Below are positions 22,021 to 45,403 of a stretch of 45,458 nt of DNA, piece after piece. The position numbers and the translations under genes are program-made. Position 1 is the stretch's first letter. The number at the start of each line of letters is the position of its first letter. A model generated the notes under the pieces. The model saw only the letters and a program-made list of their open reading frames with translations. It was not told where the DNA came from and searched no databases. Source of the stretch: Pseudomonas phage vB_PseudoP-SA22; the sequence record OP793496.1; one strand, given 5' to 3'.

Positions 22021-22229
22021 TTATCCTTTTGATCTTTCTGCATAACCCCTCCAATCTCCGTAGAATACAGAAGCCCTGAGGTCTACTAGGTCTAGCATTC
22101 CTTCGAGGAATTCAATCTGTCTTTTAGCTTCTTCAGCCAACTCTTCAAAGGAAAAGGCCTTCGCCTCAGCCTTCGCAAGAGCGCTTTGCGTCTCTTCAAG
22201 TGCTTTCTCCAGTTCAGCCTTTGTCATAG
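22021..22229 (-). CDS. Small coiled-coil protein (start set at the ATG inside the GTACTATGAC motif)
   Basis: MTKAELEKALEETQSALAKAEAKAFSFEELAEEAKRQIEFLEG. Confidence 0.4.
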
Positions 22230-22423
22230 TACACCACCTTGTCACTGCTCCTGAGAACATACTCAGCGTCAATAGTCCAACTCATGGTCGGGCATTTGAT
22301 CCGAATCATCTTGGGGGTAAACCCATCGACGGTGCCAATGGCTAGATGGGAGGAGGTGTTCCTGTGGACCAGGAAGACTACACTGTCCCCTACCTCTAGC
22401 TTACGTCCCACTCGATCTTTCAT
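22214..22423 (-). CDS. Hypothetical protein (69 aa)
   Basis: ORF track. Confidence 0.35.
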   Translation of the reverse strand: MKDRVGRKLEVGDSVVFLVHRNTSSHLAIGTVDGFTPKMIRIKCPTMSWTIDAEYVLRSSDKVVYYDKG

Positions 22424-22426
22424 AGA

Positions 22427-22723
22427 TTACCCCAAGATATCCGGAAGGTGAACGCTGGGGATGTAGAGGATCTCCAGGACTTCGATGGAATACATCCCTC
22501 GCCTAAGCCCCTCCTCAGCACCCCCTTTCCCAAACTTCATATCCAGCCAGAGTTCTGCGGAGATCGGCGTCTTAAACGCCAACCCCCGTTGACCGAAGTC
22601 ATGCTCAGACTTAATGTAGTACAGGTCTGGCAAGAACTTACTCACAGGAACTCCTCCACGCTCATCAGTTTGAGGTCGTACTCTCCATCCTTGTGGTTCC
22701 GGAGGAGGGCTACACCTCGCCAA
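22427..22723 (-). CDS. Hypothetical protein (98 aa)
   Basis: ORF track. Confidence 0.35.
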   Translation of the reverse strand: MARCSPPPEPQGWRVRPQTDERGGVPVSKFLPDLYYIKSEHDFGQRGLAFKTPISAELWLDMKFGKGGAEEGLRRGMYSIEVLEILYIPSVHLPDILG

Positions 22724-23403
22724 TGGTCGTTACCCTGCGGCCCCTTGTAGGACTCATCGTGGGTATAGAAGCTTCCGACTACCAGCCCGTGGATTCGCTT
22801 CTTACCTACTGCCTCGATGTGGTACTTGAATCCTTGCTCATGACCTTGGACGAAGCTGCGCTTGATCTTATTGAGGCGATGCTCGGCACTCCCGCCGTAT
22901 GGCCGACCACTGTTGGGATTGTAGAAGTAGTGGGCGAAGGCGACACCTTCGATAACACCCACGTCGAGGAAATCATGGACAATCCAATCGGACAGATCAA
23001 AATGATCGTACCCAATAAAACCTTGGAGAGCAGGGTTAGAATTTTCATACCGCTTGATACGCTCCTCGTGGTTTCCGATGAAGAAGTGCATTTCTGGTCG
23101 GTAGATACGCTTCTTACAACCCGCTTGGTGTTGCTGTAGGCGGCGAAGAGGATCGAGCAGAACTCGCATCGCATCATTACCAGCTTGTATGTCAGCGAGG
23201 ACTCGACGGCCTTCGATCTTAGCGGTACCACGATCGTAGCTTGACAGACTGGGCATGTCCCAATGGTCCCCAATATGAACAATTCGCTTGGGGCGGTTAC
23301 GTGCGATCCACTCCCCAAGGTTCCCGAGGTGATCGATGTTGACCTCGGATCGAACTTGGGTGTCCGCAATGACGAGAGTGTCTTCATTATACTTCTTACT
23401 CAT
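22642..23403 (-). CDS. Calcineurin-like metallophosphoesterase
   Basis: IVHIGDHWDMP...YDRG and FFIGNHEERI correspond to the GDxxDRG and GNHE motifs of the PPP/lambda-phosphatase fold. Confidence 0.7.
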   Translation of the reverse strand: MSKKYNEDTLVIADTQVRSEVNIDHLGNLGEWIARNRPKRIVHIGDHWDMPSLSSYDRGTAKIEGRRVLADIQAGNDAMRVLLDPLRRLQQHQAGCKKRIYRPEMHFFIGNHEERIKRYENSNPALQGFIGYDHFDLSDWIVHDFLDVGVIEGVAFAHYFYNPNSGRPYGGSAEHRLNKIKRSFVQGHEQGFKYHIEAVGKKRIHGLVVGSFYTHDESYKGPQGNDHWRGVALLRNHKDGEYDLKLMSVEEFL

Positions 23404-23869
23404 TAGGGAAGGACTCCTTGAAAGTCTCTAGAGTAAACCAGCGGAATCCGTTACGTTCGGCCCATTCCGCCATGGATTGCTTTGTGCCATCTTTACGCTT
23501 GGAAAGCCAATGGCAAGCTGTGTTGGGTCGCTCGAAGATAAACACAAGTTCAGTATCTGGGGGGAGAGCCTCCCTCACCCAGACGTACTTGGCTGCCTCC
23601 GAGGCCTCCTGGAAGTACCCCTTGACTTCAACCAGCAGATGCTTCGTCGATCCACAGGGTTGTAAGGTCGATACCTTGAAATCCGGCTTGTACTTGTGTT
23701 CGATGACGTATGGTACCGGCTCCGGCTTGAACTGCATCCAAGGCATCGTCTCGTGGACGATCTTCTCGGTTTCGCTGTCGTACTTCGTCCCAATCAATGA
23801 CTTCAGTTTGGGTCTGAAGAATCTCCCCTGCTTTGCCAATGAGCCCTCCTTCTTGAAGCTTACGGACAA
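23396..23869 (-). CDS. T7 gene 3-like endonuclease I (Holliday-junction resolving PD-(D/E)xK nuclease)
   Basis: YKPDFKV...LLVEVKGYFQ aligns with T7 endo I YTPDFLLPNGIFVETKG; flanking PYVI..H and C-terminal similarity from memory. Confidence 0.75.
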   Translation of the reverse strand: MSVSFKKEGSLAKQGRFFRPKLKSLIGTKYDSETEKIVHETMPWMQFKPEPVPYVIEHKYKPDFKVSTLQPCGSTKHLLVEVKGYFQEASEAAKYVWVREALPPDTELVFIFERPNTACHWLSKRKDGTKQSMAEWAERNGFRWFTLETFKESFPNE

Positions 23870-24575
23870 CCGATAGCGTCCCCTCAGTGAGGACAGAGTT
23901 AGACCGGATCAGCAGCCAAACCCAATCCCCCAGGCACACCCGGAACTCCGGATACTTCAGTTTGATACGTTGGATATGAGAGACAACCTTTTCAACTTGG
24001 TTGTCAGTTAGGGGCTGAGAGTGATCCAGAAGAGGGTCTAGGACTCGGTTAAGAGTGATGCACTTCCCTTCTTTATCAAACTCATAAGCCCTTGAACGGT
24101 AGACTTGAGACTTCAGACCACGGATGCTTGTGGGCCAACATGCGATTTCACACAACCCAATATCGAACTCTGCTGGATGGGAGTGAGTACTCACGACAAG
24201 GTTGACGGGTAGGTCAACACCAATGGATTCCCACACATCAAACCCCGCAGGATACCCATCAGGCTTATCCCCAGTCCTACACCGGACCTTCTTGTGTCCT
24301 ATCTTATTGTAGAACCGAGTGACCTCTACCTCTAGGGTATCATCATCACAGGGGATCAACCGTGGGCCGAATCGACTACGGCGAGTATCAGTAGGGTCCT
24401 CCACATATGGTCTACGGACATAGAGGTCGATATCCTTAGGTGCAACCCCGTTGTCTGCATCCCGAAGGAAACCACCAGCAACCTTGTAGTCAGTGAAGCC
24501 AAGACCTTCGAGGATCTCAAAGAGACCTTCACAGATCCTCTGTGCTTCATCAATAGAATATTTCTTCATCGTCAT
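23628..24575 (-). CDS. Pol-beta-superfamily nucleotidyltransferase with CCA-adding/poly(A)-polymerase-type head domain
   Basis: VAGGFLRDADNGVAPKDIDLYV matches GGxVRD...DIDh of class-II tRNA nucleotidyltransferases. The last 242 nt overlap the endonuclease I gene in another frame. Confidence 0.55.
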   Translation of the reverse strand: MTMKKYSIDEAQRICEGLFEILEGLGFTDYKVAGGFLRDADNGVAPKDIDLYVRRPYVEDPTDTRRSRFGPRLIPCDDDTLEVEVTRFYNKIGHKKVRCRTGDKPDGYPAGFDVWESIGVDLPVNLVVSTHSHPAEFDIGLCEIACWPTSIRGLKSQVYRSRAYEFDKEGKCITLNRVLDPLLDHSQPLTDNQVEKVVSHIQRIKLKYPEFRVCLGDWVWLLIRSNSVLTEGTLSVVRKLQEGGLIGKAGEILQTQTEVIDWDEVRQRNREDRPRDDALDAVQAGAGTIRHRTQVQAGFQGIDLTTLWIDEASAG

Positions 24576-25437
24576 AGGGAATCTCCCAATGTTTCTTCAG
24601 TGAGCAGTGATACTCGTTACCGGACTGCTGAATATCAAGCCAAGAGCGGTCCCGAATGAGGTAGAGGAGACGAAAATTCTCCAGAAGGTACTCTTTCCAA
24701 CTATCTCCGTACTTCTGTTGGTAGGCGTAAGCGCAAGCTGCGAAGAGATCTCTCTCACTAGAAAGCTCCCCAAGCAAATCTGCCGCTGTCTTTGGTCCCG
24801 TCCCTGGGAGACCTGGTATGTTATCCACGGAGTCACCAACAAGGAGTTGCCCGTAGAGGAATGCCGTACCGTTGCCCTCAAGCTTCCATGACTTCTGGGG
24901 CTTCTTAACGCCATACATTCTCCAAGAAGCGGAGACCCTTCCAAGACCATCAACCTGAAACGGTCCCAACTCCGGCTGGGAATCTCCACAGGGCCAACTG
25001 TAATGGTAGCATCCTGGGACTTGGCGGATATCCTTGTCTCTAGAACACGCTGTAAAGTTATCTCCCTCTTCAGTCCCTCGAATCCCGAGCCAGTCATCAG
25101 CCTCGATACCGTGGAGAGTGATTGCTCCCCACTTGTTCTTAAGTCTGTCTGACACGGTTTCCCAGTGATGAGGCTTTTCAAGACCGATTCGAGTACCCTT
25201 ATATTGCTTGATTTTCGCAAGCTCCAGCCTAAAATTTCCTTGGCCAGTAAGGTAGATTTCATACTCATCTGCATTCACCCTTTTGATAATTTGTTCGACT
25301 TTATCATCGACGAGTTTGTGGACTTCTTCCTCAGGCCATGGCTTCTCCACCTGGATATCGAAGATGTGTTCCTTCGACATAGCCACGTGGCCTAGCTCAT
25401 ACCTAAGAACGTCACCATCGATACCAGCAATCATCAC
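24550..25437 (-). CDS. 5'-3' exonuclease / flap endonuclease (T7 gp6 / Pol I 5'-nuclease family)
   Basis: H3TH motif LVGDSVDNIPGLPGTGPKTAADLL; acidic clusters GIDGD, EADD. Confidence 0.85.
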   Translation of the reverse strand: MMIAGIDGDVLRYELGHVAMSKEHIFDIQVEKPWPEEEVHKLVDDKVEQIIKRVNADEYEIYLTGQGNFRLELAKIKQYKGTRIGLEKPHHWETVSDRLKNKWGAITLHGIEADDWLGIRGTEEGDNFTACSRDKDIRQVPGCYHYSWPCGDSQPELGPFQVDGLGRVSASWRMYGVKKPQKSWKLEGNGTAFLYGQLLVGDSVDNIPGLPGTGPKTAADLLGELSSERDLFAACAYAYQQKYGDSWKEYLLENFRLLYLIRDRSWLDIQQSGNEYHCSLKKHWEIPYDDEEIFY

Positions 25438-25718
25438 GTTACCTCTTCTACGACCTGAGACTCTTTGAGCTTCTCTTCCCAGAAGACACGAAGGGCAAAG
25501 GCTTCACCCTTGGCTCGATACTCTGGGTGCTCTACCACCGGATTAACCAGTGCCTCGTAGCCCTTCCAGTCGTAATATTCACTCTCTTGACGCTTGGCCT
25601 TGTCCATAGCTTCCTCCGTTAGGCTGTAGCCTGGGGGAAGCCCCAGGTCTACATCGATGCCCATTACAGAGTAGTTGCTAGGAACAGTCTTAGCCCTTGC
25701 ATCCAACAGAAGTTCCAT
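25434..25718 (-). CDS. Hypothetical protein (94 aa)
   Basis: ORF track; ATGA overlap with downstream gene. Confidence 0.4.
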   Translation of the reverse strand: MELLLDARAKTVPSNYSVMGIDVDLGLPPGYSLTEEAMDKAKRQESEYYDWKGYEALVNPVVEHPEYRAKGEAFALRVFWEEKLKESQVVEEVT

Positions 25719-26193
25719 TGGAGTCCTCCTCTTGCTGAATGACGAGTTCCAGAGACGCTAGGGCGTTCCATACTTCGTGATACCGGTGGGGTAGATTACT
25801 TTGGGGGTCCAAAGCTTCACCCTTGTGTCGCTCAAGGAGGTGTCTCCCGAAGGCAGCGTCATATCGCTGGACTCCGTTCTCGACGGATCTCCAACCCCCG
25901 CGACTATACTTGCTGGCTCCGAAGTTAGCAACTTGTGCCACTGCATATAGAGCCCTCGGGAACGCTTCGAAGATGATTCCAACATCCACCTTGCCGCTAT
26001 CGAGTTTAGCACCCGGTTCACCCGGCTTGATTCCATTAGGATCGACCTCTACTTTATTATTAGATGCAGCTGTAGAACTGACCACCCTTACACCCCACAC
26101 TCTCTCGAATTCAATTAAGCAGTAGGGGCAGCCCAATGGGCATACCCCCGCCTCGTGATCCTCCAAGCCCTTAGATAGGAGCGTCTTCGTCAT
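25690..26193 (-). CDS. Possible dATP/dGTP pyrophosphohydrolase-like domain protein (start set at inner Met)
   Basis: KLDSGKVDVGIIFEAFPRALYAVAQVANFGASKYSRGGWRS resembles the KYDsGK...P.al..VA.V...Ga.KY...W signature of the phage dATP/dGTP PPase N-terminal domain (from memory). Confidence 0.4.
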   Translation of the reverse strand: MTKTLLSKGLEDHEAGVCPLGCPYCLIEFERVWGVRVVSSTAASNNKVEVDPNGIKPGEPGAKLDSGKVDVGIIFEAFPRALYAVAQVANFGASKYSRGGWRSVENGVQRYDAAFGRHLLERHKGEALDPQSNLPHRYHEVWNALASLELVIQQEEDSNGTSVGCKG

Positions 26194-26725
26194 CGAATAC
26201 CTCGTCGAATACATCCTCGGGCTCTTCCTCGGTGAAGGCACCACCGAACAGCGGATCATCCTCACCGTCACCACCGGATACAATCTCGTGGAGTCGTACA
26301 CCACGGAGACGCAGGGCCGTCATAGTACCCTTACCTCGCGGACCCTTCTGAGTCTCGATCAGGATACCAACCTCGCCAGTAGAACCACCCCACGGATTGG
26401 GGCCATCATACGGCTTGTTGTCCGAGGTCAGAACCACCGGCTTCATCACGGCAGACTTGCGCTCACCGTCTTGCATCCAATCCACGTGCTTCTTCTGCTT
26501 TACCTTGAACAGGTACTCGCCATCACGCTCTTGGTATTTGATGGTATCCTTCAGACGGGCATCTTTGGATTCCATCTGTTGGACCAGCTTGTCTGCCTCT
26601 TCCTTGGTTGGAATGCAGATGGTTACTTGGTAGACTTCACCGTACTCGGTGTCCGGAGTTACGATGTAGGGGAAGATCAGCTTCGCTACCGGGAAGGTGA
26701 ATCGTTGGGATACTTTCTTAGACAT
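26171..26725 (-). CDS. Single-stranded DNA-binding protein, T7 gp2.5-like
   Basis: N-terminal PYIVTPDTEYGEVYQVTICIPTKEE parallels T7 gp2.5 PYAYIAKPDYG...YKVDLTIPNKD; acidic C-terminal tail EEEPEDVFDEVFDDEDAPI. Confidence 0.7.
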   Translation of the reverse strand: MSKKVSQRFTFPVAKLIFPYIVTPDTEYGEVYQVTICIPTKEEADKLVQQMESKDARLKDTIKYQERDGEYLFKVKQKKHVDWMQDGERKSAVMKPVVLTSDNKPYDGPNPWGGSTGEVGILIETQKGPRGKGTMTALRLRGVRLHEIVSGGDGEDDPLFGGAFTEEEPEDVFDEVFDDEDAPI

Positions 26726-26753
26726 ATCTTAAACCTCTCGTAGGGAAGAAGGT

Positions 26754-26782
26754 ATTATACCACAGAGGGGGCTGAAAGTCAA
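26754..26782 (-). promoter_or_regulatory. Near-consensus sigma70 promoter (TTGACT-17-TATAAT, extended TGTGg) upstream of SSB gene
   Basis: Minus strand gTTGACTttcagccccctctgtggTATAATacc. Confidence 0.7.
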
Positions 26783-26794
26783 CCCCCAGATGTA

Positions 26795-28432
26795 TCAGTG
26801 TGTGTCATACCATGAGCGACCAGCGATAGAATCACTAGCCAAAGGACAGTTAACCCCGAGGAGTTCCCCAGCATCCCGGACACAGACTTCCATCTGCCCA
26901 CGTAGCGCAAGGAGATCATCCGGGTGGCATTCCCACTGACCCTCATCATGGATATCCAAGACTTTCCAAGCACGCAGGTTTAGCCTACGAACCCGCTCGT
27001 CTAGGAGCACCATGGCCCACTTCATGACAATTGCACCTGCTGCTTGTAGGAGGGTGTTCAATGCCTTGTGGATCATCACGTCGCCAGACTCAGAACGTCG
27101 CATGGTTAGCTTCCGTCCGTCTAGCCCTTCGAGATAACCCCTCTCGGCTTCCTGCTTAACCCTCTCAATCAGTGCAGCAAGGTCAGGGTTAGCCTCAAGG
27201 AACTGGGCCCGGAGTCTAGCGCCGTCTGCCCTGGTGCCTCCAATGATAGTCCCGATCTTGGCATCCCCAGCACCGTAGATGAAGGCGTAGATGAACGTCT
27301 TAGCATCGTCACGGGTTGGGAGGCCTGCGGCTATCTGGTTGGCAGTGTGTACATCACCCTCGACCACCTCTTTGGTGTACTCTGGGTTATTGATGTAGGA
27401 TGCAAGCATCCGAAGCTCTAGTCCAGCACCATCATAGCCCACGAAGATCATTTGATTCGCTGGGACGTATATCTTGTGCTTTCCTACAGGCTTCCACTTA
27501 CCTTTCTTGAGTTCCTCCACTATGTTAGTGAAGGGCCTAACCCTTTCGTTCTCTCCAATGTCTCGGCGGAGGACAGTCCATTTCCATTCACCGGCATCAG
27601 GTGTCCCCTGGAACAACCCTCGGATTTCTGGTCCAAAGGGAGAACGAGCAGCGGGGATATTGACTACTACACGGTGCCTCATTCGGCCCGTAGGTGTTGC
27701 ACAGGGGTTAGCACTCCCCTCTAGGCGTCCATCGGGCCTCACCTGATCTACCAGCCCCTGCAAGAGGGACCGACGGTGGGCCCAAACCATTCGCTGCATC
27801 ACCAGCTTTCCCAGGTCGCCCTGGACGGTATCCATCGACTCTTCAGTCATCTTAGGAGTCGTTAGTACCTTTCGTTGCCTTTCTAGCTTTCTCTTGACCT
27901 CTCCGATTGTAGTCTTACCAGGGATGATCCCCTGGAGCTTCATTCGGAGTCGTCCAGATTTACTCTGTCGGAGATCCTCAATGTACTTATTCAAGGACTC
28001 GTTAAGGTCGGACCCACGTAGCTTCTTGCCATCAGTGCCGACAGTAATATCCTTGATGTTCCATTGGTCAGGAACCCATCCCTGATCCAGCATCCAATCC
28101 TTGAACTTGGCAGTCTTACCAAGATCGAAGGGTATGTACTCGATTGCAGTGAAGGGTCCAGAGACTTCGAAATGCCCAAGACGCTGCCATAAGGACTGGA
28201 GCCTTTGATTCGGCTTACCACTCTTTAGGAATGGCTTGCTGAAGGCCCCAGCCTTTACGATCATCATCGGCATCTGGGGGACGGCCTCAAGGTCAATCTT
28301 GAGGATTCGTTCGGTAAGCACATGGATCAGCCACTTGGCCCGCTGAGTCTTGAAGTGGACTCCACGTTTACTCTGGCGACTGATAATATCAGCTACCTTG
28401 TGCTCAACGAACAGTGACTTTCTCCAATCCAC
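26795..28432 (-). CDS. DNA polymerase, family A polymerase domain only (no exonuclease domain)
   Basis: Motif A VGYDGAGLELRMLA, motif B RDDAKTFIYAFIYGAG, motif C VLDIHDEGQWE. ORF as drawn begins at a GTG directly after an in-frame TAA; first ATG further in. Confidence 0.9.
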   Translation of the reverse strand: MDWRKSLFVEHKVADIISRQSKRGVHFKTQRAKWLIHVLTERILKIDLEAVPQMPMMIVKAGAFSKPFLKSGKPNQRLQSLWQRLGHFEVSGPFTAIEYIPFDLGKTAKFKDWMLDQGWVPDQWNIKDITVGTDGKKLRGSDLNESLNKYIEDLRQSKSGRLRMKLQGIIPGKTTIGEVKRKLERQRKVLTTPKMTEESMDTVQGDLGKLVMQRMVWAHRRSLLQGLVDQVRPDGRLEGSANPCATPTGRMRHRVVVNIPAARSPFGPEIRGLFQGTPDAGEWKWTVLRRDIGENERVRPFTNIVEELKKGKWKPVGKHKIYVPANQMIFVGYDGAGLELRMLASYINNPEYTKEVVEGDVHTANQIAAGLPTRDDAKTFIYAFIYGAGDAKIGTIIGGTRADGARLRAQFLEANPDLAALIERVKQEAERGYLEGLDGRKLTMRRSESGDVMIHKALNTLLQAAGAIVMKWAMVLLDERVRRLNLRAWKVLDIHDEGQWECHPDDLLALRGQMEVCVRDAGELLGVNCPLASDSIAGRSWYDTH

Positions 28433-28672
28433 TTAGTCCCCCTTAAGACGCTCCGCCAGATTCTCTACGACTACCTCCACGGCCTCGTCGGAGATACCCT
28501 CCAGGTAGGAGAGGTAGTCCACGGTTCCGCTTCGGTCCAGTCGCCATTGCTGCTCCAAGAACGCTACAGCAACTTGCTTGAGCAGGAAGTCATCTACCCG
28601 CTCCATGAGAACACTTTTGATCTTGCTCATGTTATCACCAGTCGAAAATGAAGTAGGAACATCCACGCTCAC
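28433..28672 (-). CDS. Hypothetical 79-aa protein, in the same frame as the polymerase ORF and separated from it by a single TAA
   Basis: Frame arithmetic on coordinates; ...AERLKGD * VDWRKSLFVEH. Confidence 0.35.
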   Translation of the reverse strand: MSVDVPTSFSTGDNMSKIKSVLMERVDDFLLKQVAVAFLEQQWRLDRSGTVDYLSYLEGISDEAVEVVVENLAERLKGD

Positions 28673-29144: not shown

Positions 29145-29189
29145 TTGTATCTCCTATAGGGGTAAAGCAACCCCCGGCACCTTAAGGTT

Positions 29190-29218
29190 ATTATATCACA
29201 CTTTGCTGGATTTGTCAA
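29190..29218 (-). promoter_or_regulatory. Perfect-consensus sigma70 promoter TTGACA-17-TATAAT (extended TGTGa) with conserved leader AACCTTAAGGTGCCGGGGGTTGCTTT
   Basis: Minus strand cTTGACAaatccagcaaagtgtgaTATAATaaccttaagg. Confidence 0.8.
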
Positions 29219-29220
29219 GA

Positions 29221-30046: not shown

Positions 30047-30081
30047 AGAGAGTCCTCGGGGGCCCGAAGGCCCCTCCTTAG

Positions 30082-32562: not shown

Positions 32563-32940
32563 TTACCCCTCCAGTTGACTCTTGAGAACCAGGCTTGGTA
32601 CAGCATTCACGTTGCCCGGTAGGGTTTTATAGGGAGTTGTTACGAAGGTACCGTAGACCTCCTCCAGTTCCCGAAGACGATCCTCGATTTTCTTCAGTCG
32701 CTCCCACATGAAGCGAATTCCAATGGATTCGTCACAGTACCCACCGTAGCTGGTCTCGGGACTATCCGAGGCCTCCGGAATCTTGGAGACCTCGATAGAG
32801 TCTTGGAGGTGTCGCTGGGAAGCTACAAGGCCCAGGATCTCCTTGAGAAGCATCTTCTGGGCATGTAGCTCTTGGTGTCCGAAGGTATTCGGAGTATCGC
32901 GGTAGACTTCTACTGCTTTGTCTACGGTCATTTCGTTCAT
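32563..32940 (-). CDS. Hypothetical protein (125 aa)
   Basis: ORF track; ATG overlaps the GGCT-like gene stop. Confidence 0.4.
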   Translation of the reverse strand: MNEMTVDKAVEVYRDTPNTFGHQELHAQKMLLKEILGLVASQRHLQDSIEVSKIPEASDSPETSYGGYCDESIGIRFMWERLKKIEDRLRELEEVYGTFVTTPYKTLPGNVNAVPSLVLKSQLEG

Positions 32941-36121: not shown

Positions 36122-37297
36122 TTAGTACATATCTGGTTCGATTGTTACGCCGGTATGGCGCTGAAGGTGCTGCGGGTTATCCATGAGCAGTACGAAGGCA
36201 TCTTGAAGAGCCTCTTGGTCCTCCAGAAGGTCTCGTACACGCACTTGGTGACCAATACGACGCAGAGAAGTTACCGCAGTAATCGCCGTATCCAGTCGAA
36301 CCTGGGTACCTGGGACCATTGCCAAGTTGTACCGCTCTGCTGCACCATCGAGTAGTCTGGAGGTAGTAGATCGAGCCAGCAGCAGCCTACGATCCAAAAC
36401 CCTCTGACGCTCACGTTCCTGCTCCCGGAGACGACGCTGACGGTTCTGTTCATCCTCCAGAGGGTCTACCCCGGAGCGAACAAATCCCATGGTTGCTACC
36501 GCGAGAGTAGCACTGGCGATCCCCATCTCACGACCACCTGGAGACATTTCATAGTCCGGAGATACCCCCAGGAAGAACACATCACGGAGATTCACCTCGG
36601 AGAGAACCTTGAGGAACTCTTCCAGCGGGGTTTCTGCGTGAGCCATAGCGAAGGCCTTGAGACACAACATACGCTGCATCAGGCCTACCATCTCCTGCCG
36701 AGTAGTGAGAGCATGGGCCCCACGGAACTCGATGGATCCGAAGTTGTGGGTTACCTGGAGGTTCAAGGCCGAATACTTTGGCCAGGAGGTAAGACCCAAG
36801 ACTTTCTCTCGGTCACCTTCCGGGGCCAGGATACGGCGACCAAAGGTCTGGGCCAGCCAGTCGTTGCTGAAGAACGGGATGCAGAAGTTACTATCCCGAC
36901 GATACGGCTGACAGTGATCGAAGAAAACATCCTCGAATGCCATGTAGGTCAGGACCGTTCGCTCATAAACCGGCCACTCTACGTCCCGCATATCCATGTG
37001 CAGGTGGGTGGAGCAACGGAAGGTGGGGGCCGGAGGGGTTTCTTCCATCGCACTAACGAAGGATTCAACCCGAGTGATTGCCTTCTGGCCAGAGGCGGGA
37101 CCGGAGAAGACATACTCCATACCCTCCCGCAGAGAACCGTCACCCTTCAGATCCCACCCATCCACTTCCGGCCAGTTGTTGAGGCCTTCCAGTTCGACTT
37201 CGAAACCGAAGGAAGCAACCGCAGGCAGTTCCTCGTGGTGTTCCGGGGCAATGATCTGGTTCTTACGGAACCCTATCTGTGTGCCAATAACTGACAT
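36122..37297 (-). CDS. Glutamine-synthetase-like amidoligase (GCS2/YbdK-type carboxylate-amine ligase), paralogue 1
   Basis: N-terminal FGFEVELEG (E-x-E), CSTHLHMDMRD (H-x-H), GSIEFRGAHA (E-x-R): the three signature strands of the GS/GCS2 fold. Confidence 0.6.
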   Translation of the reverse strand: MSVIGTQIGFRKNQIIAPEHHEELPAVASFGFEVELEGLNNWPEVDGWDLKGDGSLREGMEYVFSGPASGQKAITRVESFVSAMEETPPAPTFRCSTHLHMDMRDVEWPVYERTVLTYMAFEDVFFDHCQPYRRDSNFCIPFFSNDWLAQTFGRRILAPEGDREKVLGLTSWPKYSALNLQVTHNFGSIEFRGAHALTTRQEMVGLMQRMLCLKAFAMAHAETPLEEFLKVLSEVNLRDVFFLGVSPDYEMSPGGREMGIASATLAVATMGFVRSGVDPLEDEQNRQRRLREQERERQRVLDRRLLLARSTTSRLLDGAAERYNLAMVPGTQVRLDTAITAVTSLRRIGHQVRVRDLLEDQEALQDAFVLLMDNPQHLQRHTGVTIEPDMY

Positions 37298-37842
37298 AGC
37301 AAGTCCTCCTGGTTCTTGAATTGTTCATCTGCGGACAGTCGGCCATCTACCATCTGACCAACCTTCACCCCCTTCCAGTGAACTACCCCATCCTTGATGA
37401 AGAAGTCCCGGTGGGAGGGAGCAGAGATCATTTCCTCGGCCTGGGTGAAGATTCGGATCATCATTTCGCCGGTGATAGCCTGTTGGCCATGGTTCAGCAA
37501 GATGTTCCGTGGATCTACACCCTTACGCTGGGTCCGGTTGTTCACGAGGAATGATACATAGGTATCACGAACCCCACGGCCAAAGACGTCATAGTACCCA
37601 CTGGAGGGCCGCACGCTTTCTACCTCGCTGTAGACAACCCCACCGTAGTAGTTACTGCCGTCGGGTCGGTACACGTTGCCAAGGAGACGAAACCCATCGA
37701 ATTGACGGTCGTCACCAATGGACTCGGTATCGTCCACGTACACTACCCGAGGCTCGCCGTCCACCCGGAAGAAGGCATAGGTGGAGGAGTAGTACATGTT
37801 GAAGTCTCCGGACAACCGATGGCGATTATTCAGGTCATTCAT
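37273..37842 (-). CDS. Hypothetical protein (189 aa) within amidoligase operon
   Basis: Overlapping start/stop with both neighbours. Confidence 0.45.
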   Translation of the reverse strand: MNDLNNRHRLSGDFNMYYSSTYAFFRVDGEPRVVYVDDTESIGDDRQFDGFRLLGNVYRPDGSNYYGGVVYSEVESVRPSSGYYDVFGRGVRDTYVSFLVNNRTQRKGVDPRNILLNHGQQAITGEMMIRIFTQAEEMISAPSHRDFFIKDGVVHWKGVKVGQMVDGRLSADEQFKNQEDLLCQLLAHR

Positions 37843-38635
37843 ATACCACCCCCAGCGCTTTAAGTGCAGCTACCGCCGCGGCGCCGTCGTTCTCGTTGAT
37901 GATTCGCTGGACTTCATCGCCAGATACGATGGACTTGTACTCCTCCAGGAGGTGCTTGGAGGTGTAAGCCCGTACTGCCATTTCATAGACCCACTCGGTC
38001 AGATCGACAGAGAAGATCCAGAAGTTCGACAGGCTACGGTACTCGCCGCCGTAGGGCTTATAGCGCATTGCGCCAGCCTTGCCGTACAGCTTCTTACGCT
38101 GGGTGTCACCGTCGAGGATGACAGACGCCAGGCCCAGGAGGTAGTCACACATCTGCATGACCTCGCGGGTGTTCGCTTTGGTGACTCGCTCGATGTGGCT
38201 GAAGCCGATATGGACGTGGCCGCCAGCAGTTCGCAGGGTCGGAGGGGCATCCTTCGGCATCACGTTCTGACGACGAGTCCAGCAGTTGTAGTCCGGCTCG
38301 CAACCGAAGACGTAAGCCTGGGGACCGAAGCTGCGGAGGAGTTCCTCGTCGTACAGGTGAGACGACAGGTTCTCGATGATGTTCATGCCGAAGGGGTGGA
38401 GCATCTGGGCACCAAGGAGTCGGACGGAAATGATCCGCTTGACGAACTCTTCCTTGGTGCTGGCCGGGTCGATGTTGTACTCCAGAAGAACGTTGTCTTC
38501 TTGGACGGCACCACCGGCTACAGCCAAGGGCGCTTCCTTGGTTCCACCGATGAAGCCGATGACGCTCTGGGGGTTACGGTCGTAGCCGACGAAAACTTCG
38601 GGATCTGCACCGATCAGGGGGATTGCGTTGTTCAT
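37835..38635 (-). CDS. Glutamine-synthetase-like amidoligase, paralogue 2 (shorter)
   Basis: LIGADPEVFVG (E), TAGGHVHIGF (H-x-H), YGGEYRSLS (E-x-R). Confidence 0.55.
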   Translation of the reverse strand: MNNAIPLIGADPEVFVGYDRNPQSVIGFIGGTKEAPLAVAGGAVQEDNVLLEYNIDPASTKEEFVKRIISVRLLGAQMLHPFGMNIIENLSSHLYDEELLRSFGPQAYVFGCEPDYNCWTRRQNVMPKDAPPTLRTAGGHVHIGFSHIERVTKANTREVMQMCDYLLGLASVILDGDTQRKKLYGKAGAMRYKPYGGEYRSLSNFWIFSVDLTEWVYEMAVRAYTSKHLLEEYKSIVSGDEVQRIINENDGAAAVAALKALGVVYE

Positions 38636-39588
38636 TGCATGTTCTCCAGTTTTTCGAGGATTTCGGGGATGCTGTATTGGCTGGTGGGTACGACCTCGGA
38701 CCTTTCCCGACCTGGGTCACCTACGTCAATGGTGATTGGGGCCATGATGGAAAGGATTCGGTCATTAGGTACACCTTCAAGACCGTCGCATTCGATCAGG
38801 TAATCATCCTTGGTATACCCCTGCCACAACTCAGCGTCGTGATGCTTGAGCTTGTCCTTGAACTCTTCGCGAGTCCGCTCATGGATGCTCTTAATATCGA
38901 AGTAGGTGATATTCTTGTACCCACCTACGATACCATCCATGACCTCGCTTATGTAGCTGTCATCCACCTCCCAGCCGTGGCTCTCGCAGCCCTCCCGGTA
39001 TTCACCAGCAGTCACCGGGAACATGGCCGGATAGCTGTCGCAATGAGCAGTGCTACCTACCTGGGCACAAGCCGCGAGGGTGAGAATCTCTGCATTGCAG
39101 CCCAGGATTTTATCACGATTTTCCTGGGTGATGCGACGCATGGAATCACCTACACACCACAAGCGATCTCCCATTCGGAGAGCACAGATGATGGCCGATG
39201 CGTTCTTCCTGAGGTCCACCCGTACATACACTGCCTGCCGGCGTCCTGGGGGTGAGAAGTGGTTGGGATCACTGAGATTCTGGAGATCATCGTCGTAATT
39301 CCACCAACGGGTAGGCCAGTCGATAGAAGCCGAGAGGATACCGCCATCGGTAATCCTGTTGACCAGATCACTGTTCAGGAACTCCACCAGTTTACCAGAG
39401 GTATTCTCGTGGGTAGATACCAGCAGGTGGCCAACCCCGGTAACCCACCGGTCGCCCCCAACGTCGGAGGTCCGGTCGCAATAGGCCCCGAAGCAGTTTG
39501 TATATTCGGCCATCATTTTGACCGAGTAGTGGTGTACCACAGAGCCCTCGGCATCATAGTACACATTATGGGCTGCATACATTCCCAT
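38632..39588 (-). CDS. Hypothetical protein (318 aa), Cys/His-rich, within amidoligase operon
   Basis: ATGA overlap with paralogue 2; AGGAG SD. Confidence 0.45.
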   Translation of the reverse strand: MGMYAAHNVYYDAEGSVVHHYSVKMMAEYTNCFGAYCDRTSDVGGDRWVTGVGHLLVSTHENTSGKLVEFLNSDLVNRITDGGILSASIDWPTRWWNYDDDLQNLSDPNHFSPPGRRQAVYVRVDLRKNASAIICALRMGDRLWCVGDSMRRITQENRDKILGCNAEILTLAACAQVGSTAHCDSYPAMFPVTAGEYREGCESHGWEVDDSYISEVMDGIVGGYKNITYFDIKSIHERTREEFKDKLKHHDAELWQGYTKDDYLIECDGLEGVPNDRILSIMAPITIDVGDPGRERSEVVPTSQYSIPEILEKLENMQ

Positions 39589-39606
39589 TTGATTTCTCCT
39601 TGGTTG

Positions 39607-40569: not shown

Positions 40570-40593
40570 TTGTTTTCTCCTTGGTTGAGTTAG

Positions 40594-40637
40594 CCAGCAA
40601 TACCCCCAGGACAGGAATACTAGGGGTATTACTAGCG
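40594..40637. repeat. Conserved long stem-loop element, copy B (CCAGCAATACCCCCAGG ... CTAGGGGTATTACTAGCG)
   Basis: 14/17-bp stem, 9-nt loop; arms homologous to element A; immediately 5' of the operon first gene SD on - strand. Confidence 0.7.
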
Positions 40638-40657
40638 ACCTCTAAGTTACTTAGAAG

Positions 40658-40780
40658 GTGCCACGGCGCTGTTGCTTGCCTTTGGTCGGTGCCGACACCT
40701 TGGTGGCCTTGAGGTTGCCGTTCAGGGTCAATTCACCGTTGGAGCAGAGACGCTCATAGAAAACCTTACGCTTACCCATT
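40658..40780 (-). CDS. Possible 40-aa basic peptide
   Basis: Manual translation MGKRKVFYERLCSNGELTLNGNLKATKVSAPTKGKQQRRGTF; below ORF-track cutoff. Confidence 0.25.
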
Positions 40781-40790
40781 GTTCACCTCC

Positions 40791-41615
40791 TTAGCGAACG
40801 TTGATGAAGGGCATGGCTTGGCCGCCGGTGACGTAGGTAGGCAGCTTGCCGTCCCACTTCTCGATGGCATTCAGTTCTACCACGCCGGGGTTCTGGCGGA
40901 GGGCTTCACCCTGGATGCGGAGGCTTTCGGCCTTACCTTGTGCCACCAGGATAGCCGCTTGCTTCTCACCCTCGGCTGCCGCGATAGCCTTAGCTGCCTC
41001 GGCCTGGGTCTGACGCAGTTCGTTCTCGCGCTGCATCGCCGTCTGAGTGGCCTTGATCTTGGCATTGATCGCCTCGACCACCTGCGCCGGCAGACCGATC
41101 ATACCGTTGAGGTACAGGCTTTCGACGATGATGCCACGGGTGGAGAAGTGCTCACGGACGGCAGCTTCGACTTCCTTCACGAAGGCTTCCTTGCCCGGAC
41201 CATAGATGGACTCGGCGGACTTTTTGCTGCTGGCGTTGTTCACGGCGTTACGGACCACCTGCGGCACGTTCACGCTTACGATCTCGTTCATGCCCTTGCG
41301 GTAGGTCTGGAACAGCAGGGGTGCGCTACCCGGAGCAGCCCGGAGGGTGACGCCGATGGGGAAGTCCAGCTTCAGGCCGTCCTTGTCCTGGGCAGTAACC
41401 ACCGCCAGATCGAAGTTCTGGTTGAAGGTGGGGAACTTGAACAACTCCTCGTTGGGGGTCAGGAACTTCCAGCCGACCGGAGTTTCCTTCAGATCGACGC
41501 CTTTGGAGTCGCCCATCATGTTGACGACGACGCCGGTATAGCCAGCGGGAACCTTGGAGCAACCTGCGGTGATTGCGAGAGCAGCAATGGCCAGGAGGCC
41601 GAGGATTTTCTTCAT
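40791..41615 (-). CDS. SPFH (band-7/stomatin/HflKC-like) domain lipoprotein
   Basis: Lipoprotein signal MKKILGLLAIAALAITAGC; SPFH-like core then Ala/Glu/Gln-rich coiled coil AMQRENELRQTQAEAAKAIAAAEGEKQAAILVAQGKAESLRIQGEALRQ. Confidence 0.65.
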   Translation of the reverse strand: MKKILGLLAIAALAITAGCSKVPAGYTGVVVNMMGDSKGVDLKETPVGWKFLTPNEELFKFPTFNQNFDLAVVTAQDKDGLKLDFPIGVTLRAAPGSAPLLFQTYRKGMNEIVSVNVPQVVRNAVNNASSKKSAESIYGPGKEAFVKEVEAAVREHFSTRGIIVESLYLNGMIGLPAQVVEAINAKIKATQTAMQRENELRQTQAEAAKAIAAAEGEKQAAILVAQGKAESLRIQGEALRQNPGVVELNAIEKWDGKLPTYVTGGQAMPFINVR

Positions 41616-41624
41616 AGGGATTCC

Positions 41625-41843
41625 TTACTTGTAGAGAAGAGGGGTGATGTAGACCATGCACAATGCGATGAACATGACGAACATCAGTACATAGAAGCCC
41701 CAATCATGCGGGGGCTTACCTGGGTGGCCCAGCAGGCCGTCTATCTTATGTATGTTGTCGTAGAGGTCGGAGGTATCTTCGCCGATACCCTCCAGATCCA
41801 TGTGGATTGCCTTACGGAGGCGGTCTCGCTGCTGTTCCGTCAT
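41625..41843 (-). CDS. Small membrane protein with C-terminal TM; ATG lies inside a GTACTATGAC motif
   Basis: MTEQQRDRL...WGFYVLMFVMFIALCMVYITPLLYK. Confidence 0.5.
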   Translation of the reverse strand: MTEQQRDRLRKAIHMDLEGIGEDTSDLYDNIHKIDGLLGHPGKPPHDWGFYVLMFVMFIALCMVYITPLLYK

Positions 41844-41849
41844 AGTACA

Positions 41850-42302
41850 TCACACCTCCACCGTAAAGGGATGACCCTTGGGAAGTAACTCGAAGATGTA
41901 TTCCACCCGCTCGGGTTGAATGTCCCAACTGTCGCCAGTCTCCAGGCAGATGAAGGGAAGCGTCTCGGTGTCAAGGTTCAGTCTGCCTGACACGAAGATT
42001 CGACCATCCCCTCGGTGACGCCAGAAGTGGGGGACTACCTCTTGGGTAGTACGAACCTTTACTTCATTTTTCAGTCCTGCCAATTCATCACGAAGCTCCT
42101 GGATCTCCATTTCCATTCCTCCGCACTGATGGCGAGCATCATCACCCTTCGCTGCTGCGTCGAGTGCCATAGCCAACGACTTCTCCAATTCCTGGATCTT
42201 GGCCGTGGCTACCTCCAGACGCTTAGCGTACTCGTCGCGGTCATACATGACCTGCATGAACTTCTCGAAGCTGACGATGGGTTTCTCCGACTCACTCATC
42301 AT
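41850..42302 (-). CDS. Coiled-coil early protein (150 aa)
   Basis: ORF track. Confidence 0.45.
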   Translation of the reverse strand: MMSESEKPIVSFEKFMQVMYDRDEYAKRLEVATAKIQELEKSLAMALDAAAKGDDARHQCGGMEMEIQELRDELAGLKNEVKVRTTQEVVPHFWRHRGDGRIFVSGRLNLDTETLPFICLETGDSWDIQPERVEYIFELLPKGHPFTVEV

Positions 42303-42594
42303 CTACCCCCAGGGTCTTTACCCTTTTCTCCAGGCGTTTGCTGTAGTTGTACAGGTGGCTGACAGCCCAGAGGGAGTAGAGGATGGAGATCACCAGGAGG
42401 GCGGCACCGATGGCGTTAACCATGGTGTTAGCCGGGGACAGCATCTGGGGTACTACCCAGAGGATGCTTACCCATGCGGGGATAGCCAGAAGCATTACCC
42501 GAGTGTAGAGCTTGAGGACCATTGTTCTTACCTCTTTCTTAAGATGAAGAAGATAGAAGGTTAGAACCTTAGGTATCCTAGGGATATAAAGCAA
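42292..42594 (-). CDS. Two-TM membrane protein (100 aa), first gene after internal promoter
   Basis: LLAIPAWVSILWVVPQM and AIGAALLVISILYSLWAVSHL; AGAGG SD. Confidence 0.5.
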   Translation of the reverse strand: MLYIPRIPKVLTFYLLHLKKEVRTMVLKLYTRVMLLAIPAWVSILWVVPQMLSPANTMVNAIGAALLVISILYSLWAVSHLYNYSKRLEKRVKTLGVDDE

Positions 42595-42613
42595 CCCCGG
42601 ACACCTTAAGGTT

Positions 42614-42642
42614 ATTATACCACACTTTCAGCAGAATGTCAA
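42614..42642 (-). promoter_or_regulatory. Perfect-consensus sigma70 promoter TTGACA-17-TATAAT (extended TGTGg), leader homologous to the 29.2-kb promoter
   Basis: Minus strand cTTGACAttctgctgaaagtgtggTATAATaaccttaaggtgtccggggttgcttt. Confidence 0.8.
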
Positions 42643-42652
42643 GGTCTAGATG

Positions 42653-43078
42653 TTACAGACCTTTGCAGAGCTTGTCGAGGTATTCCGAGTGCTCGACAGT
42701 ACCGGGGAAGTCCTGCAAACCACCGAGTCGGCGGATGAGGACACCGTGGTTGATGAGGATCTCTGCCGCAGCTTGCACGTTGATGACGTGTACACGAACC
42801 TTCGTCGAGTGGTTGGCGCTGGACGCCCAGGGGTTGTAGTGGCTGCCCATGCGGCGGAGGATGGTATCGGCTACCACCTGCTCGTTGTTCACGGAGAAAA
42901 CGGCGGTGCCATGACCTTCGTTGTACTCACGACGGATGACGCCGATCAGTTCCCTGGCGAAAGTCCTGGGGCTGAACCCATTGGACGCAATGCCGGCGTA
43001 GTGGTCAGCAGTACCGGAGGGACCCATGCCGATGTAAATCTTGGCGGTGCAGCAGGAGGGGAAGTCTTTGCGTTGCAT
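42653..43078 (-). CDS. Hypothetical Rossmann-like protein (142 aa; start set at inner Met sharing TAATG with upstream stop)
   Basis: MQRKDFPSCCTAKIYIGMGPSGTADHYAGIASNG...; the track ORF (to 43180) would overlap the upstream gene by 100 nt. Confidence 0.4.
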   Translation of the reverse strand: MQRKDFPSCCTAKIYIGMGPSGTADHYAGIASNGFSPRTFARELIGVIRREYNEGHGTAVFSVNNEQVVADTILRRMGSHYNPWASSANHSTKVRVHVINVQAAAEILINHGVLIRRLGGLQDFPGTVEHSEYLDKLCKGL

Positions 43079-43332
43079 TAGTAATCTCCTTTGATTAGTC
43101 GTTTGGTTGACTTGATGAGGTTGACCAGGGGACAGTATATGACAGCCATAAAGCACATCCAGGGAAGTGATGCAGGCCACAGGGCACCCATTACGATTGC
43201 AATGTCCCGGTCTTTTTGGCTCATCCTTCCATACTCATCGCAGTTTGCCGCCAACCCGGCGATACCAGCCACGAGCAAGGATAAAGCCATATAGATCAGG
43301 ATCGCTGGGATTATCAGGAGGTATGTCATCAT
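43078..43332 (-). CDS. Two-TM small membrane protein (84 aa)
   Basis: LLIIPAILIYMALSLLVAGIAGLAA and IVMGALWPASLPWMCFMAVIYCPLV. Confidence 0.45.
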   Translation of the reverse strand: MMTYLLIIPAILIYMALSLLVAGIAGLAANCDEYGRMSQKDRDIAIVMGALWPASLPWMCFMAVIYCPLVNLIKSTKRLIKGDY

Positions 43333-43337
43333 TTTGC

Positions 43338-43679
43338 TTACCCTTGCTGAGACCCCTTCAATACATACTCATCGAAGGCATCTTCCCTGTCCTCGGGTAT
43401 TCCTTCAAGCTCGATGGTCACATATCGCCCATACTCCGCTCGTACCCAATCAAGGAATTCACCCTTGACTGCCTCGGGGTCAGTAGCACCACCAGCGGCA
43501 GCCATGTTGTAGAGGGATTCCAAATGGTATCGCCAAGGCACATAGACCGTGCCATCGTCAAGGACAGTGATCCTCGACGGGAGGAACGTGAGGTGTTTCG
43601 ACCGGCCCATCACCAATCCCTCGCGCAGTTGCAGCAACGTCCCTCTTTGGGACCGAAGACTGGCATGCAATGAGGGCAA
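43338..43679 (-). CDS. Hypothetical early protein (113 aa)
   Basis: ORF track. Confidence 0.4.
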   Translation of the reverse strand: MPSLHASLRSQRGTLLQLREGLVMGRSKHLTFLPSRITVLDDGTVYVPWRYHLESLYNMAAAGGATDPEAVKGEFLDWVRAEYGRYVTIELEGIPEDREDAFDEYVLKGSQQG

Positions 43680-43891
43680 GGCTCCCCGGATTGGATCATA
43701 GCCTCCCTGGCGTGCCTCAGGTAAGCCGATCGGCTGGACTCCATACCTACGGCAGCCAAGGTGAAACCAAGCTCACCACGGGGCTCCTGGGTGCCTTCCT
43801 GGAGGCTCATGTTGAACCCCCGCTTTTCTACACGACGCTTCATGCGACGCTCCTGGGCCATTATCTGGCCGATCATGGGTTTATTCTTCAT
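43610..43891 (-). CDS. Hypothetical protein with C-terminal Cys cluster (CPHCMP...CCNCARDW)
   Basis: ORF track. Confidence 0.35.
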   Translation of the reverse strand: MKNKPMIGQIMAQERRMKRRVEKRGFNMSLQEGTQEPRGELGFTLAAVGMESSRSAYLRHAREAMIQSGEPCPHCMPVFGPKEGRCCNCARDW

Positions 43892-44144
43892 ACGGCCCCC
43901 ACATGCAGGAATTCACCGACAACCATTTGGCCGGGAATAGCTCAAGGTGAGTGCCGATTTCCTTGCACTTGAGGATGTTGAAACCATCCTTGTGGATGAT
44001 GGTAACGAGTTCGCCCTTCTTGAGGTAAACCAGGTCGCCAGACCCGGAATCACCCGAATGGACGTAGGCACCATCCGCCATCTGGCTGATGTGGAATTCA
44101 ACCCTTGGCTTTGCTACAGACACGCTGAAAGAAGTATTGGTCAT
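43881..44144 (-). CDS. Hypothetical early protein (87 aa)
   Basis: ORF track. Confidence 0.4.
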   Translation of the reverse strand: MTNTSFSVSVAKPRVEFHISQMADGAYVHSGDSGSGDLVYLKKGELVTIIHKDGFNILKCKEIGTHLELFPAKWLSVNSCMWGPYEE

Positions 44145-44153
44145 GGCGTCACC

Positions 44154-44300
44154 TTACTGAACCCGATGAACGATGTGGTCCACCGGGATGCCGAGTTCGA
44201 AGAAGGTTTCGGTGATGAACTGCCCGAAGTTGATGACCTTTACGTGTCGCTCACCGTCCTTGCTTACCAACCAGAAAACCTGGGGTTTAGTGGAGTTCAT
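44154..44300 (-). CDS. Possible 48-aa early peptide
   Basis: Manual translation MNSTKPQVFWLVSKDGERHVKVINFGQFITETFFELGIPVDHIVHRVQ. Confidence 0.25.
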   Translation of the reverse strand: MNSTKPQVFWLVSKDGERHVKVINFGQFITETFFELGIPVDHIVHRVQ

Positions 44301-44442
44301 AGACGATACCTACACGTTTGCCGAAGATAGATACACGGATGTGGGTCACGTACCAACCAGGGTACGCCTTGGGGTTAGGCTGGAACCTGCGGATGCTGAC
44401 CAAGGATTCCAACCAGAGGAATAGATACAGGGCGGGCGTCAT
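44287..44442 (-). CDS. Possible 51-aa early peptide; ATG inside a GTACTATGAC motif
   Basis: Manual translation MTPALYLFLWLESLVSIRRFQPNPKAYPGWYVTHIRVSIFGKRVGIVYELH. Confidence 0.25.
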   Translation of the reverse strand: MTPALYLFLWLESLVSIRRFQPNPKAYPGWYVTHIRVSIFGKRVGIVYELH

Positions 44443-44576
44443 AGTACACCTACCTCACGATGCAAAAGGGATGCTGTCCAAGGTCGAGGACAGGACGAAG
44501 AGGACCACCCACGCTACCAGCAACAACCCATTGGAACGTGAGCGTATGGCGGCACATGCAATATACTTCCATGCCA

Positions 44577-44759
44577 TCACCGCGCCCTGTTCTTAGCCAA
44601 GGATGCACGCTTGGCACGGAGCTTGTTCAACTCCAGGGTTTTGCCAAGGTGGCTACCATTGGTATTGGTAAGCTCACGAGTAACCTTGGCAATCTTGCGG
44701 TCGATAGCCTCGATGGCTTGCATGTTGCGGCTGACCTTACGATAGTCGTTGCGTTTCAC
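44577..44759 (-). CDS. Small basic helical protein (60 aa)
   Basis: ORF track. Confidence 0.35.
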   Translation of the reverse strand: MKRNDYRKVSRNMQAIEAIDRKIAKVTRELTNTNGSHLGKTLELNKLRAKRASLAKNRAR

Positions 44760-45075
44760 GGGATAGTTTCCTTTGTTGATTTCCCAAGACGCCCCAGCCT
44801 GCGACCATAGGTCCGGTGGGGGTTTCGGCCAGGAATCACCATGGCCTCATCAGTTGGGTCAGTTGATACCCATTCCTTCCTTCCAGTCACGGAAGAAGAA
44901 GTATCCGATGCCTACGCAAGACACCACGATAGCGATAGTCATTTCTTCAACCTCTTAATCAATTCCTGTTGTTCTTGCTTCCACTTGGGATCGGGGTGAA
45001 CCCGCAGCATCCTCGTGAGCTTCTGCAACCGATTAACCATGAGTGCCCTTTCGTGGGCTGCTTCGTAGGGGGACT

Positions 45076-45303
45076 TCATTTGGTCCACCCGCAGAGGCCC
45101 ATGCAACGGCCTTCCACATAGACGCCGCAGGCGAATTTACCATCGACGAAAGCCCAACGGTAAACCACCTGTTCAACCCCGTTGCTATTGTACGAACGGG
45201 AGTTACAACGCCCTTGCACGTAGTCGTTTGTAACAGCTACCAGAAAGCTACCAAAAGGGGTCCACACGGTTATATCCTCGGTTAGTTCATCCATACAATA
45301 CAC
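45076..45303 (-). CDS. Cys-rich small early protein (75 aa)
   Basis: ORF track. Confidence 0.35.
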   Translation of the reverse strand: MYCMDELTEDITVWTPFGSFLVAVTNDYVQGRCNSRSYNSNGVEQVVYRWAFVDGKFACGVYVEGRCMGLCGWTK

Positions 45304-45403
45304 GGACCTACCATGTACTCTAGGGAGGAACCAAGGGGCGCGTCATAGTACGCCCCTGGCCCTGGCCGTTAGGCCGCTTTCGTAGGCTCTTCGAACTTCA
45401 GCA

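Follow-up and report, generated by a model that had tools for sequence, protein, structure and literature searches.

The 45,458-nucleotide stretch of DNA from Pseudomonas phage vB_PseudoP-SA22 (record OP793496.1; the whole stretch is called the window in the following) is the genome of a Bruynoghevirus, a LUZ24-like podophage of P. aeruginosa, with 93-97% nucleotide identity to deposited members over its full length and the gene order of the LUZ24-like group, arranged in convergent arms. Recurring in it is a short motif, found exclusively on the minus strand, which very probably marks the sites of single-strand nicks described for this group. Positions 1-55 of the window are identical to 45404-45458, an overlap left by circular assembly (unique length 45,403 bp), and the 184-bp direct terminal repeat (DTR) of LUZ24 maps to a single internal copy in reverse orientation (1712-1895, minus strand); the window is thus a circularly permuted, reverse-complemented assembly with the physical ends inside it. 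At both ends, the DTR borders of LUZ24, of phage tf and of the window share a sequence of the type GGGAAT|ATC|CCCC, a candidate terminase cutting signal.

The motif and its sites

Across the whole window, the 10-mer GTACTATGAC occurs in six exact copies, all on the minus strand (22223-22232, 26319-26328, 37588-37597, 41839-41848, 44438-44447, and 45342-45351), and in none on the plus strand; 0.04 copies are expected, and none of 100 dinucleotide-preserving shuffles reaches six. Allowing one mismatch adds three further copies, again on the minus strand only: two of GTACTGTGAC (17542-17551 and 32731-32740) and a ninth, degenerate copy, GTACTATGAT (39553-39562). The consensus TACTRTGMC accordingly has eight minus-strand matches, six of the first form and two of the second, and no plus-strand match, where 1.15 are expected. 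The original prediction, which took the motif for a candidate nick site, was right about its recurrence, its restriction to the minus strand and its excess over chance. GTCATAGTAC and CGTCATAGTAC are the commonest 10-mer and 11-mer of the genome. Its inventory was short, however, with four copies of GTACTATGAC and one of GTACTGTGAC (those at 26319, 37588 and 32731 were missed), and it placed the copy at 17542-17551 one position too far, at 17543-17552. Beyond about 12 nucleotides (nt) on either side of the motif, the sequence is unrelated from site to site; the copies are therefore not duplications, and duplicated gene starts or paralogy are rejected as their source.

Counted from the left end in LUZ24 orientation, where they lie on the top strand, the eight sites fall at 4.3, 6.3, 12.0, 21.3, 31.9, 46.0, 55.0 and 65.3% of a genome whose length is inferred as 45,587 bp, close to the published LUZ24 map of putative sites (Glukhov et al., 2012; PMC3517423). 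The leftmost, c1 (45342-45351, GTACTATGAC; predicted nick between 45347 and 45346 of the minus strand), is intergenic, between the gp2-like and gp3-like genes, its ATG opening just an 8-codon open reading frame (ORF); it is kept in all six Bruynogheviruses compared, and the PhiCHU and TL records annotate a putative nickase recognition site there. It also lies within the 8-nt loop of a GC-rich hairpin, GGGGCG-TACTATGA-CGCCCC (45317-45376, minus strand; z = -2.0), which follows the gp2-like gene. At c2 (44438-44447, GTACTATGAC) the predicted nick is directly 5' of the start codon (44442-44440) of a 51-residue ORF (44287-44442, MTPAL...), orthologous to the start of oldone_7 and to annotated PhiCHU and TL sites, while at c3 (41839-41848, GTACTATGAC) the ATG (41843-41841) starts a 72-residue ORF (41625-41843, MTEQQ...), orthologous to the starts of oldone_16, PhiCHU_21 and TL gp11, and the site is kept in six of six genomes. 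The third site of this kind is c10 (22223-22232, GTACTATGAC), whose ATG (22227-22225) starts a 68-residue gp47-like ORF (22021-22227, MTKAELEK...); it corresponds to the LUZ24 gp47 start at 25353 and to the oldone_47 start, and is likewise kept in six of six genomes. All three small ORFs are annotated as genes in oldone, and the start-codon overlap that had been proposed for three copies is correct.

The remaining five sites comprise, besides c1, four within genes, three of them in other reading frames and one antisense. Site c5 (37588-37597, GTACTATGAC) encodes Tyr-Tyr-Asp in the gp17-like ORF 37273-37842, is kept in all six genomes and is annotated in TL. Site c7 (32731-32740, GTACTGTGAC) encodes Tyr-Cys-Asp in the gp23-like ORF 32563-32940; the same position in C1-14_Or01 and PaP3 has the ATG variant and reads Tyr-Tyr-Asp. 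Site c8 (26319-26328, GTACTATGAC) encodes Thr-Met-Thr, with an in-frame internal Met, in the ORF of a Gp2.5-like single-stranded-DNA-binding protein (SSB; 26171-26725), and is restricted to the LUZ24 sub-clade, PaP3 having instead a non-orthologous site about 750 bp off. Site c11 (17542-17551, GTACTGTGAC) lies antisense in the gene of a 1056-residue virion protein (17204-20374, plus strand), as had been noted earlier; there the plus strand reads TCA CAG TAC (Ser-Gln-Tyr), and the site, kept in six of six genomes, has the G variant because the ATG variant would place an in-frame TAG in this gene. The degenerate ninth copy, of class c4 (39553-39562, GTACTATGAT), is a decayed site in the gp15-like ORF 38632-39588, in which C9 has changed to T, turning GAC into the synonymous GAT of a Tyr-Tyr-Asp frame; its ortholog is canonical in LUZ24 (6451) and oldone (7907), and decayed also in PA_CQ9.

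This range of contexts is best understood from reading-frame constraints. On the sense strand the frame xTA CTR TGA contains TGA and is hence forbidden, so that within a gene the motif must encode either Tyr-Tyr/Cys-Asp, as at 37588, 32731 and 39553, or Thr-Met/Val-Thr, as at 26319; at a gene start the sole requirements are a TACT within the spacer, which is free to vary, and a Thr codon in second place. Low coding cost thus best explains why the motif overlaps start codons, gene starts being where the motif burdens the coding sequence least: it is placed where it is cheapest, making use of the degeneracy at R.

Mapped nicks and conservation in related phages

The feature itself has been in the literature and in the annotation of public records since 2012-2013, and its occurrence in the window is a rediscovery. 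In phage tf, 14 top-strand nicks have been mapped, each following base four of TACT/RTGMC; every one of the 14 consensus sites is nicked, the breaks are present in more than 90% of molecules and are sealed by T4 ligase, and nine same-strand copies of the motif are listed for LUZ24 and PaP3 (Glukhov et al., 2012; PMC3517423). The tf record carries the nicks as features sci1-14, and features named 'putative nickase recognition site' are present in the TL and PhiCHU records. In the P. aeruginosa LUZ24-like phage vB_PaeP_C1-14_Or01 (C1-14_Or01), read-end peaks occur at 8 internal positions, all of the GTACTATGAC type (Essoh et al., 2013; PMC3634792), and the genome has exactly 8 consensus sites. 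In Rembedalsseter, all 13 WACTRTGAC sites show strand-specific coverage breaks in Oxford Nanopore Technologies (ONT) reads, and 61 related phages show a one-strand enrichment of the motif (Dougherty et al., 2025; PMC11780129). These reports bear out the statement, in the original prediction, of one-strand interruptions at TACT/RTGMC in tf and LUZ24-like phages.

When eight genomes are oriented alike (the window, PA_CQ9, oldone, LUZ24, C1-14_Or01, PaP3, tf, and Rembedalsseter), each of them has 8-14 sites on the sense strand of the early genes and none on the other. Over three clades, 30 of 35 sites are concentrated in the left arm (P = 2e-4). Directly after the 9-mer, 31 of the 35 sites in the window, tf and Rembedalsseter have a G (P = 4e-14), whereas a G directly before it is a trait of nearly all Bruynoghevirus sites that tf and Rembedalsseter do not share. 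In the extended form GTACTATGACG the predicted nick point is T4/R5; the partial dyad symmetry GT..TA..AC centred on it, with three of five symmetric pairs, is not above chance.

Among the six Bruynogheviruses, seven site classes are universal and four lineage-specific; the window has the seven universal ones together with the SSB-gene site of the LUZ24 clade, and seven of its eight sites are orthologous to C1-14_Or01 sites with read-end support. Within the universal classes only one of 63 motif columns varies, compared to 282 of 630 flanking columns (45%; Fisher P = 4e-14), and this sole varying column is the permitted A/G at position 5. By this measure of sequence divergence, the motif is under strong purifying selection. 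Where sites are lost, they tend to be replaced by non-orthologous neighbours; in LUZ24 and PaP3, for example, a site lies at 45.5% of the genome length in either phage, and in the alignment the two are separated by about 750 bp. Two deposited records begin next to predicted nicks: position 1 of SaPL (MH973725) is 4 nt 3' of that at c2, and position 1 of 41C (PV880424) is 1 nt 3' of the one at c4, whose ortholog there is canonical. This suggests that nick-induced read ends were taken for termini, or broke the assembly.

Probable nicking of the virion DNA and its alternatives

The window motif is thus very probably the nick site of the LUZ24 group, with virion DNA nicked at eight positions. In the packaged DNA the window minus strand would be cut between T4 and R5 of (G)TACT/RTGAC(G) at each of them; this is the top strand in LUZ24 orientation, sense for the early and middle genes, and its complement would stay intact. 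By analogy with tf, the breaks would be plain nicks with 3'-OH and 5'-P ends, sealable by ligase. As judged from the relatives, a phage-encoded enzyme would introduce them late in infection or at packaging, and they would be sealed after entry. What the window contributes to this reading is the motif, its strand exclusivity, its excess over chance, its orthology to experimentally supported sites and the signature of purifying selection. Several points weigh against it: physical nicking in this phage is extrapolated from relatives that are 50-95% identical; Pfam, NCBIfam, PHROGs and PDB sequence searches, extended to the conserved unknown proteins, return no diagnostic nickase match; the orthologous site at 39553-39562 has decayed by a synonymous change, and individual sites are therefore dispensable; and nick-less T5 mutants are viable, according to the literature.

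Some of these points would fit sites that persist as relics or binding sites in a phage whose DNA is no longer nicked, the nickase being lost, inactive or host-dependent: the searches for a nickase return nothing diagnostic, and one ortholog has decayed to GAT both in the window and in PA_CQ9. This is nevertheless improbable, as the 8:0 strand bias and a near-invariant motif between flanks that are 45% variable argue for ongoing selection, as none of the conserved candidate nucleases is missing and each has 92-100% identity to its LUZ24 counterpart, and as each experimentally tested relative is nicked at all of its consensus sites. Even less likely, the motif may mark a process other than nicking, such as base modification, a primase or replication signal with unligated Okazaki junctions, or a packaging pause. 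The trinucleotide of T7-type primases, 5'-GTC-3', does occur in the complement of the motif, and may be connected with the T7 gp4-like primase-helicase that the phage encodes; but a primer started at GTC would begin at A8, while the mapped nick is before R5, and the primase-site idea is rejected on this ground. Rembedalsseter gave breaks and no modification signal, ligase alone seals the breaks of tf, and the GGGAAT-type sequence at the DTR borders is unrelated to the motif, by which a role in terminase or DTR cutting is rejected as well.

Least likely of all is a primary role of the motif in translation initiation or regulation, as an element common to small early genes. In its favour, three of the eight sites do have a real start codon behind GGAGG/GGTG-like sequence, and three of the 12 left-arm nicks of tf are exactly 5' of an annotated start codon; together these make 6 of 20 left-arm sites, where about 5% would be expected (P = 4e-4). 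Against it, two sites encode Tyr-Tyr/Cys-Asp, one provides an internal Met of the SSB, one runs antisense to a late gene, and a fifth falls between genes, its ATG opening an ORF of 8 codons; the choice of strand goes with the DNA molecule and not with gene orientation, the motif has no overlap with sigma-70-like promoters, and in relatives the nicks have been physically mapped at the motif. The overlap with starts, noted qualitatively in earlier literature, further varies with annotation (one of 8 sites in LUZ24, none of 11 in Rembedalsseter, as annotated). Since five of its sites are in-gene, antisense or intergenic, and since its strand follows the molecule and not the genes, the motif is not primarily a translation signal; of the earlier suggestion that it doubles as part of translation-initiation regions, the positional coincidence at three of eight sites stands, but it does not define the motif. 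A promoter or terminator role is likewise rejected, as the sites do not coincide with annotated or predicted sigma-70 promoters.

Beyond the motif-bearing family (DNA polymerase at least 60% identical within it), the next relatives are phiEco32-like phages, at about 40%. The literature searched identifies no nickase for the LUZ24-like group. The HNH/EndoVII proteins gp30, gp35 and gp40 of LUZ24 are absent from the window, tf, Rembedalsseter, C1-14_Or01, oldone and PaP3, and, being absent from nicked relatives, therefore cannot be the nickase. Four nuclease-like candidates are family-wide, none of them diagnostic: a T7 endonuclease I-like protein (23396-23869), a FEN-type exonuclease (24550-25437), a gp44-like 'metallo-phosphoesterase' of PHROG 221 (22642-23403), the first three all encoded on the minus strand, and TerL (3700-5148, plus strand). 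The gp44-like protein is among the most conserved of the left arm, with 100% identity to LUZ24 gp44 and 74% to its tf homolog, and has no Pfam, NCBIfam or PDB sequence match; its neighbour gp42 falls to 30-45% identity, and the record of PaP3 labels the gp44 homolog a virion 'constituent protein'. Scans of the conserved left-arm proteins against Pfam, NCBIfam and PHROGs yielded no site-specific nuclease, and neither did PDB sequence searches with the gp44-, gp42- and gp17-like proteins. The product of 40791-41615 (minus strand) has homologs that the records of several relatives name 'putative transposase' or 'transposase fusion protein'; it is rejected as nickase, being an SPFH/Band 7 protein (Pfam E = 2e-21; 'lipoprotein' in PHROGs).

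The sites have no hairpin context in common: one of the eight lies in a hairpin loop, and the other seven fold no better than shuffles. The enzyme therefore probably recognises duplex sequence. A site of the HUH/relaxase type is rejected for the same lack of a common hairpin and because the nicks of tf are ligase-sealable, and thus have no protein covalently attached.

Module junctions, further features and known systems

The three leftmost sites, c1, c2 and c3, coincide with junctions between mosaic modules. When the early regions of 15 other Bruynogheviruses are compared to the window as reference, and ends of blastn homology blocks no more than 20 nt from a nick are counted, breakpoints are found in 5, 11 and 8 comparators, respectively; their sum of 24 compares to a mean of 1.9 for random position triplets (P = 0.0006), to be read with the comparators not being independent and with gene boundaries, to which two of the three sites belong, being prone to junctions in any case. 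Of the 21 mapped gene starts, 19 lie elsewhere than at these sites, and only four of the 19 have breakpoints in at least 5 comparators. The module types upstream and downstream, 3 x 2 at c1, 4 x 1 at c2 and 4 x 3 at c3, are reassorted across the sites. In a trio of Vicosavirus genomes, the first two nicked sites of Rembedalsseter adjoin indel junctions, and two of seven sites have a breakpoint no more than 20 nt away, a result short of significance by itself (P about 0.1). That nick sites are preferred junctions of mosaic exchange in this hyperplastic early region, with either the nick stimulating recombination or the conserved island of 25-35 bp serving as the crossover point, is for the two reasons given with the junction count a doubtful proposition.

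As for the purpose of the nicks, a rough and tentative guess is that they serve physically in handling the early genome part on the left, for instance by relieving torsion or strain at packaging or entry, because the sites cluster in the left arm and lost ones are replaced nearby; the stimulation of recombination and module exchange is an equally rough guess, held more loosely, and whatever remains of this guesswork goes to anti-defence or something else.

Some features of the window stand apart from the nick sites. The palindrome CCTTAAGG occurs in 9 copies (2289-2317, 17153-17169, 42604-42611 and six other places), with 0.9 expected, and CTTAAG in 25, with 9.8 expected. Both plus-strand late operons are preceded by palindrome copies at 11-nt spacing, and one copy closely follows a promoter with a perfect sigma-70 consensus (42642-42614, minus strand); the palindromes are candidate operator sites for a phage regulator. 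The region 17050-17195 is about 75% similar to the 2036-2386 region. The tRNA region 2459-2708 (Asn/Asp) is about 91% identical to tRNA clusters of unrelated Pseudomonas myophages of about 92 kb (PAK_P1/PaoP5-like), a likeness that suggests tRNA exchange or a common host-derived origin. Between about 32940 and 38635 (minus strand) lies a conserved cluster of genes for a COOH-NH2 ligase, an amidoligase, a glutamine amidotransferase, a RimK-like ATP-grasp protein and a gamma-glutamyl cyclotransferase, homologs of LUZ24 gp16-gp22 that are common to tf, Rembedalsseter and phiEco32-like phages. The DNA polymerase gene (26795-28432, minus strand; 545 residues) is uninterrupted, whereas the LUZ24 version is split by an intron with an EndoVII-like gene; the other two homing-type endonucleases of LUZ24 are likewise absent from the window.

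In practical terms, eight predicted nick positions can be annotated in this genome, and nicks of this kind explain why assemblies of the group show pile-ups of read ends, false termini and broken contigs. To what is published the window adds the decayed GAT site, which bears on motif position 9, the exclusion of homing HNH nucleases as the nickase, and a suggestive link between nick sites and module junctions. T5/BF23 and the phiKMV-like phages (the latter with CGACNNNNNCCTA/CTCCGG) also have dispensable, site-specific nicks in one strand of their virion DNA, but they have unrelated recognition sequences and belong to unrelated phage families, and it is the non-coding strand that is nicked in phiKMV-like phages; the phiKMV consensus CGACNNNNNCCTACTCCGG has no match in the window at up to 2 mismatches.

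Closer parallels are found within the motif-bearing family. Rembedalsseter, a Vicosavirus, shares with the window the core motif, its confinement to a single strand, the left-arm bias, the frequent location at gene starts and the G at +1, but has 13 sites, in which position 1 may be A and position -1 is A or C. In tf, a Krylovvirus of P. putida, the 9-mer consensus, the strand (the top one, sense for the early genes) and the concentration in the left arm are the same, and the sci1, sci4 and sci11 nicks lie exactly 5' of a start codon; yet tf has 14 sites, 13 of them of the GTG variant, and a variable -1 position, whereas six of the eight window sites are of the ATG variant and -1 is always G, and with genomes only about 50% identical most sites are non-orthologous. 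The nearest case is C1-14_Or01, which has a site in its gp19-like gene that the window is without, lacks the SSB-gene site of the window, and has ATG where the gp23-like site of the window has GTG, but which belongs to the same genus and carries the same 10-mer on the same strand, at orthologs of seven of the eight window sites.

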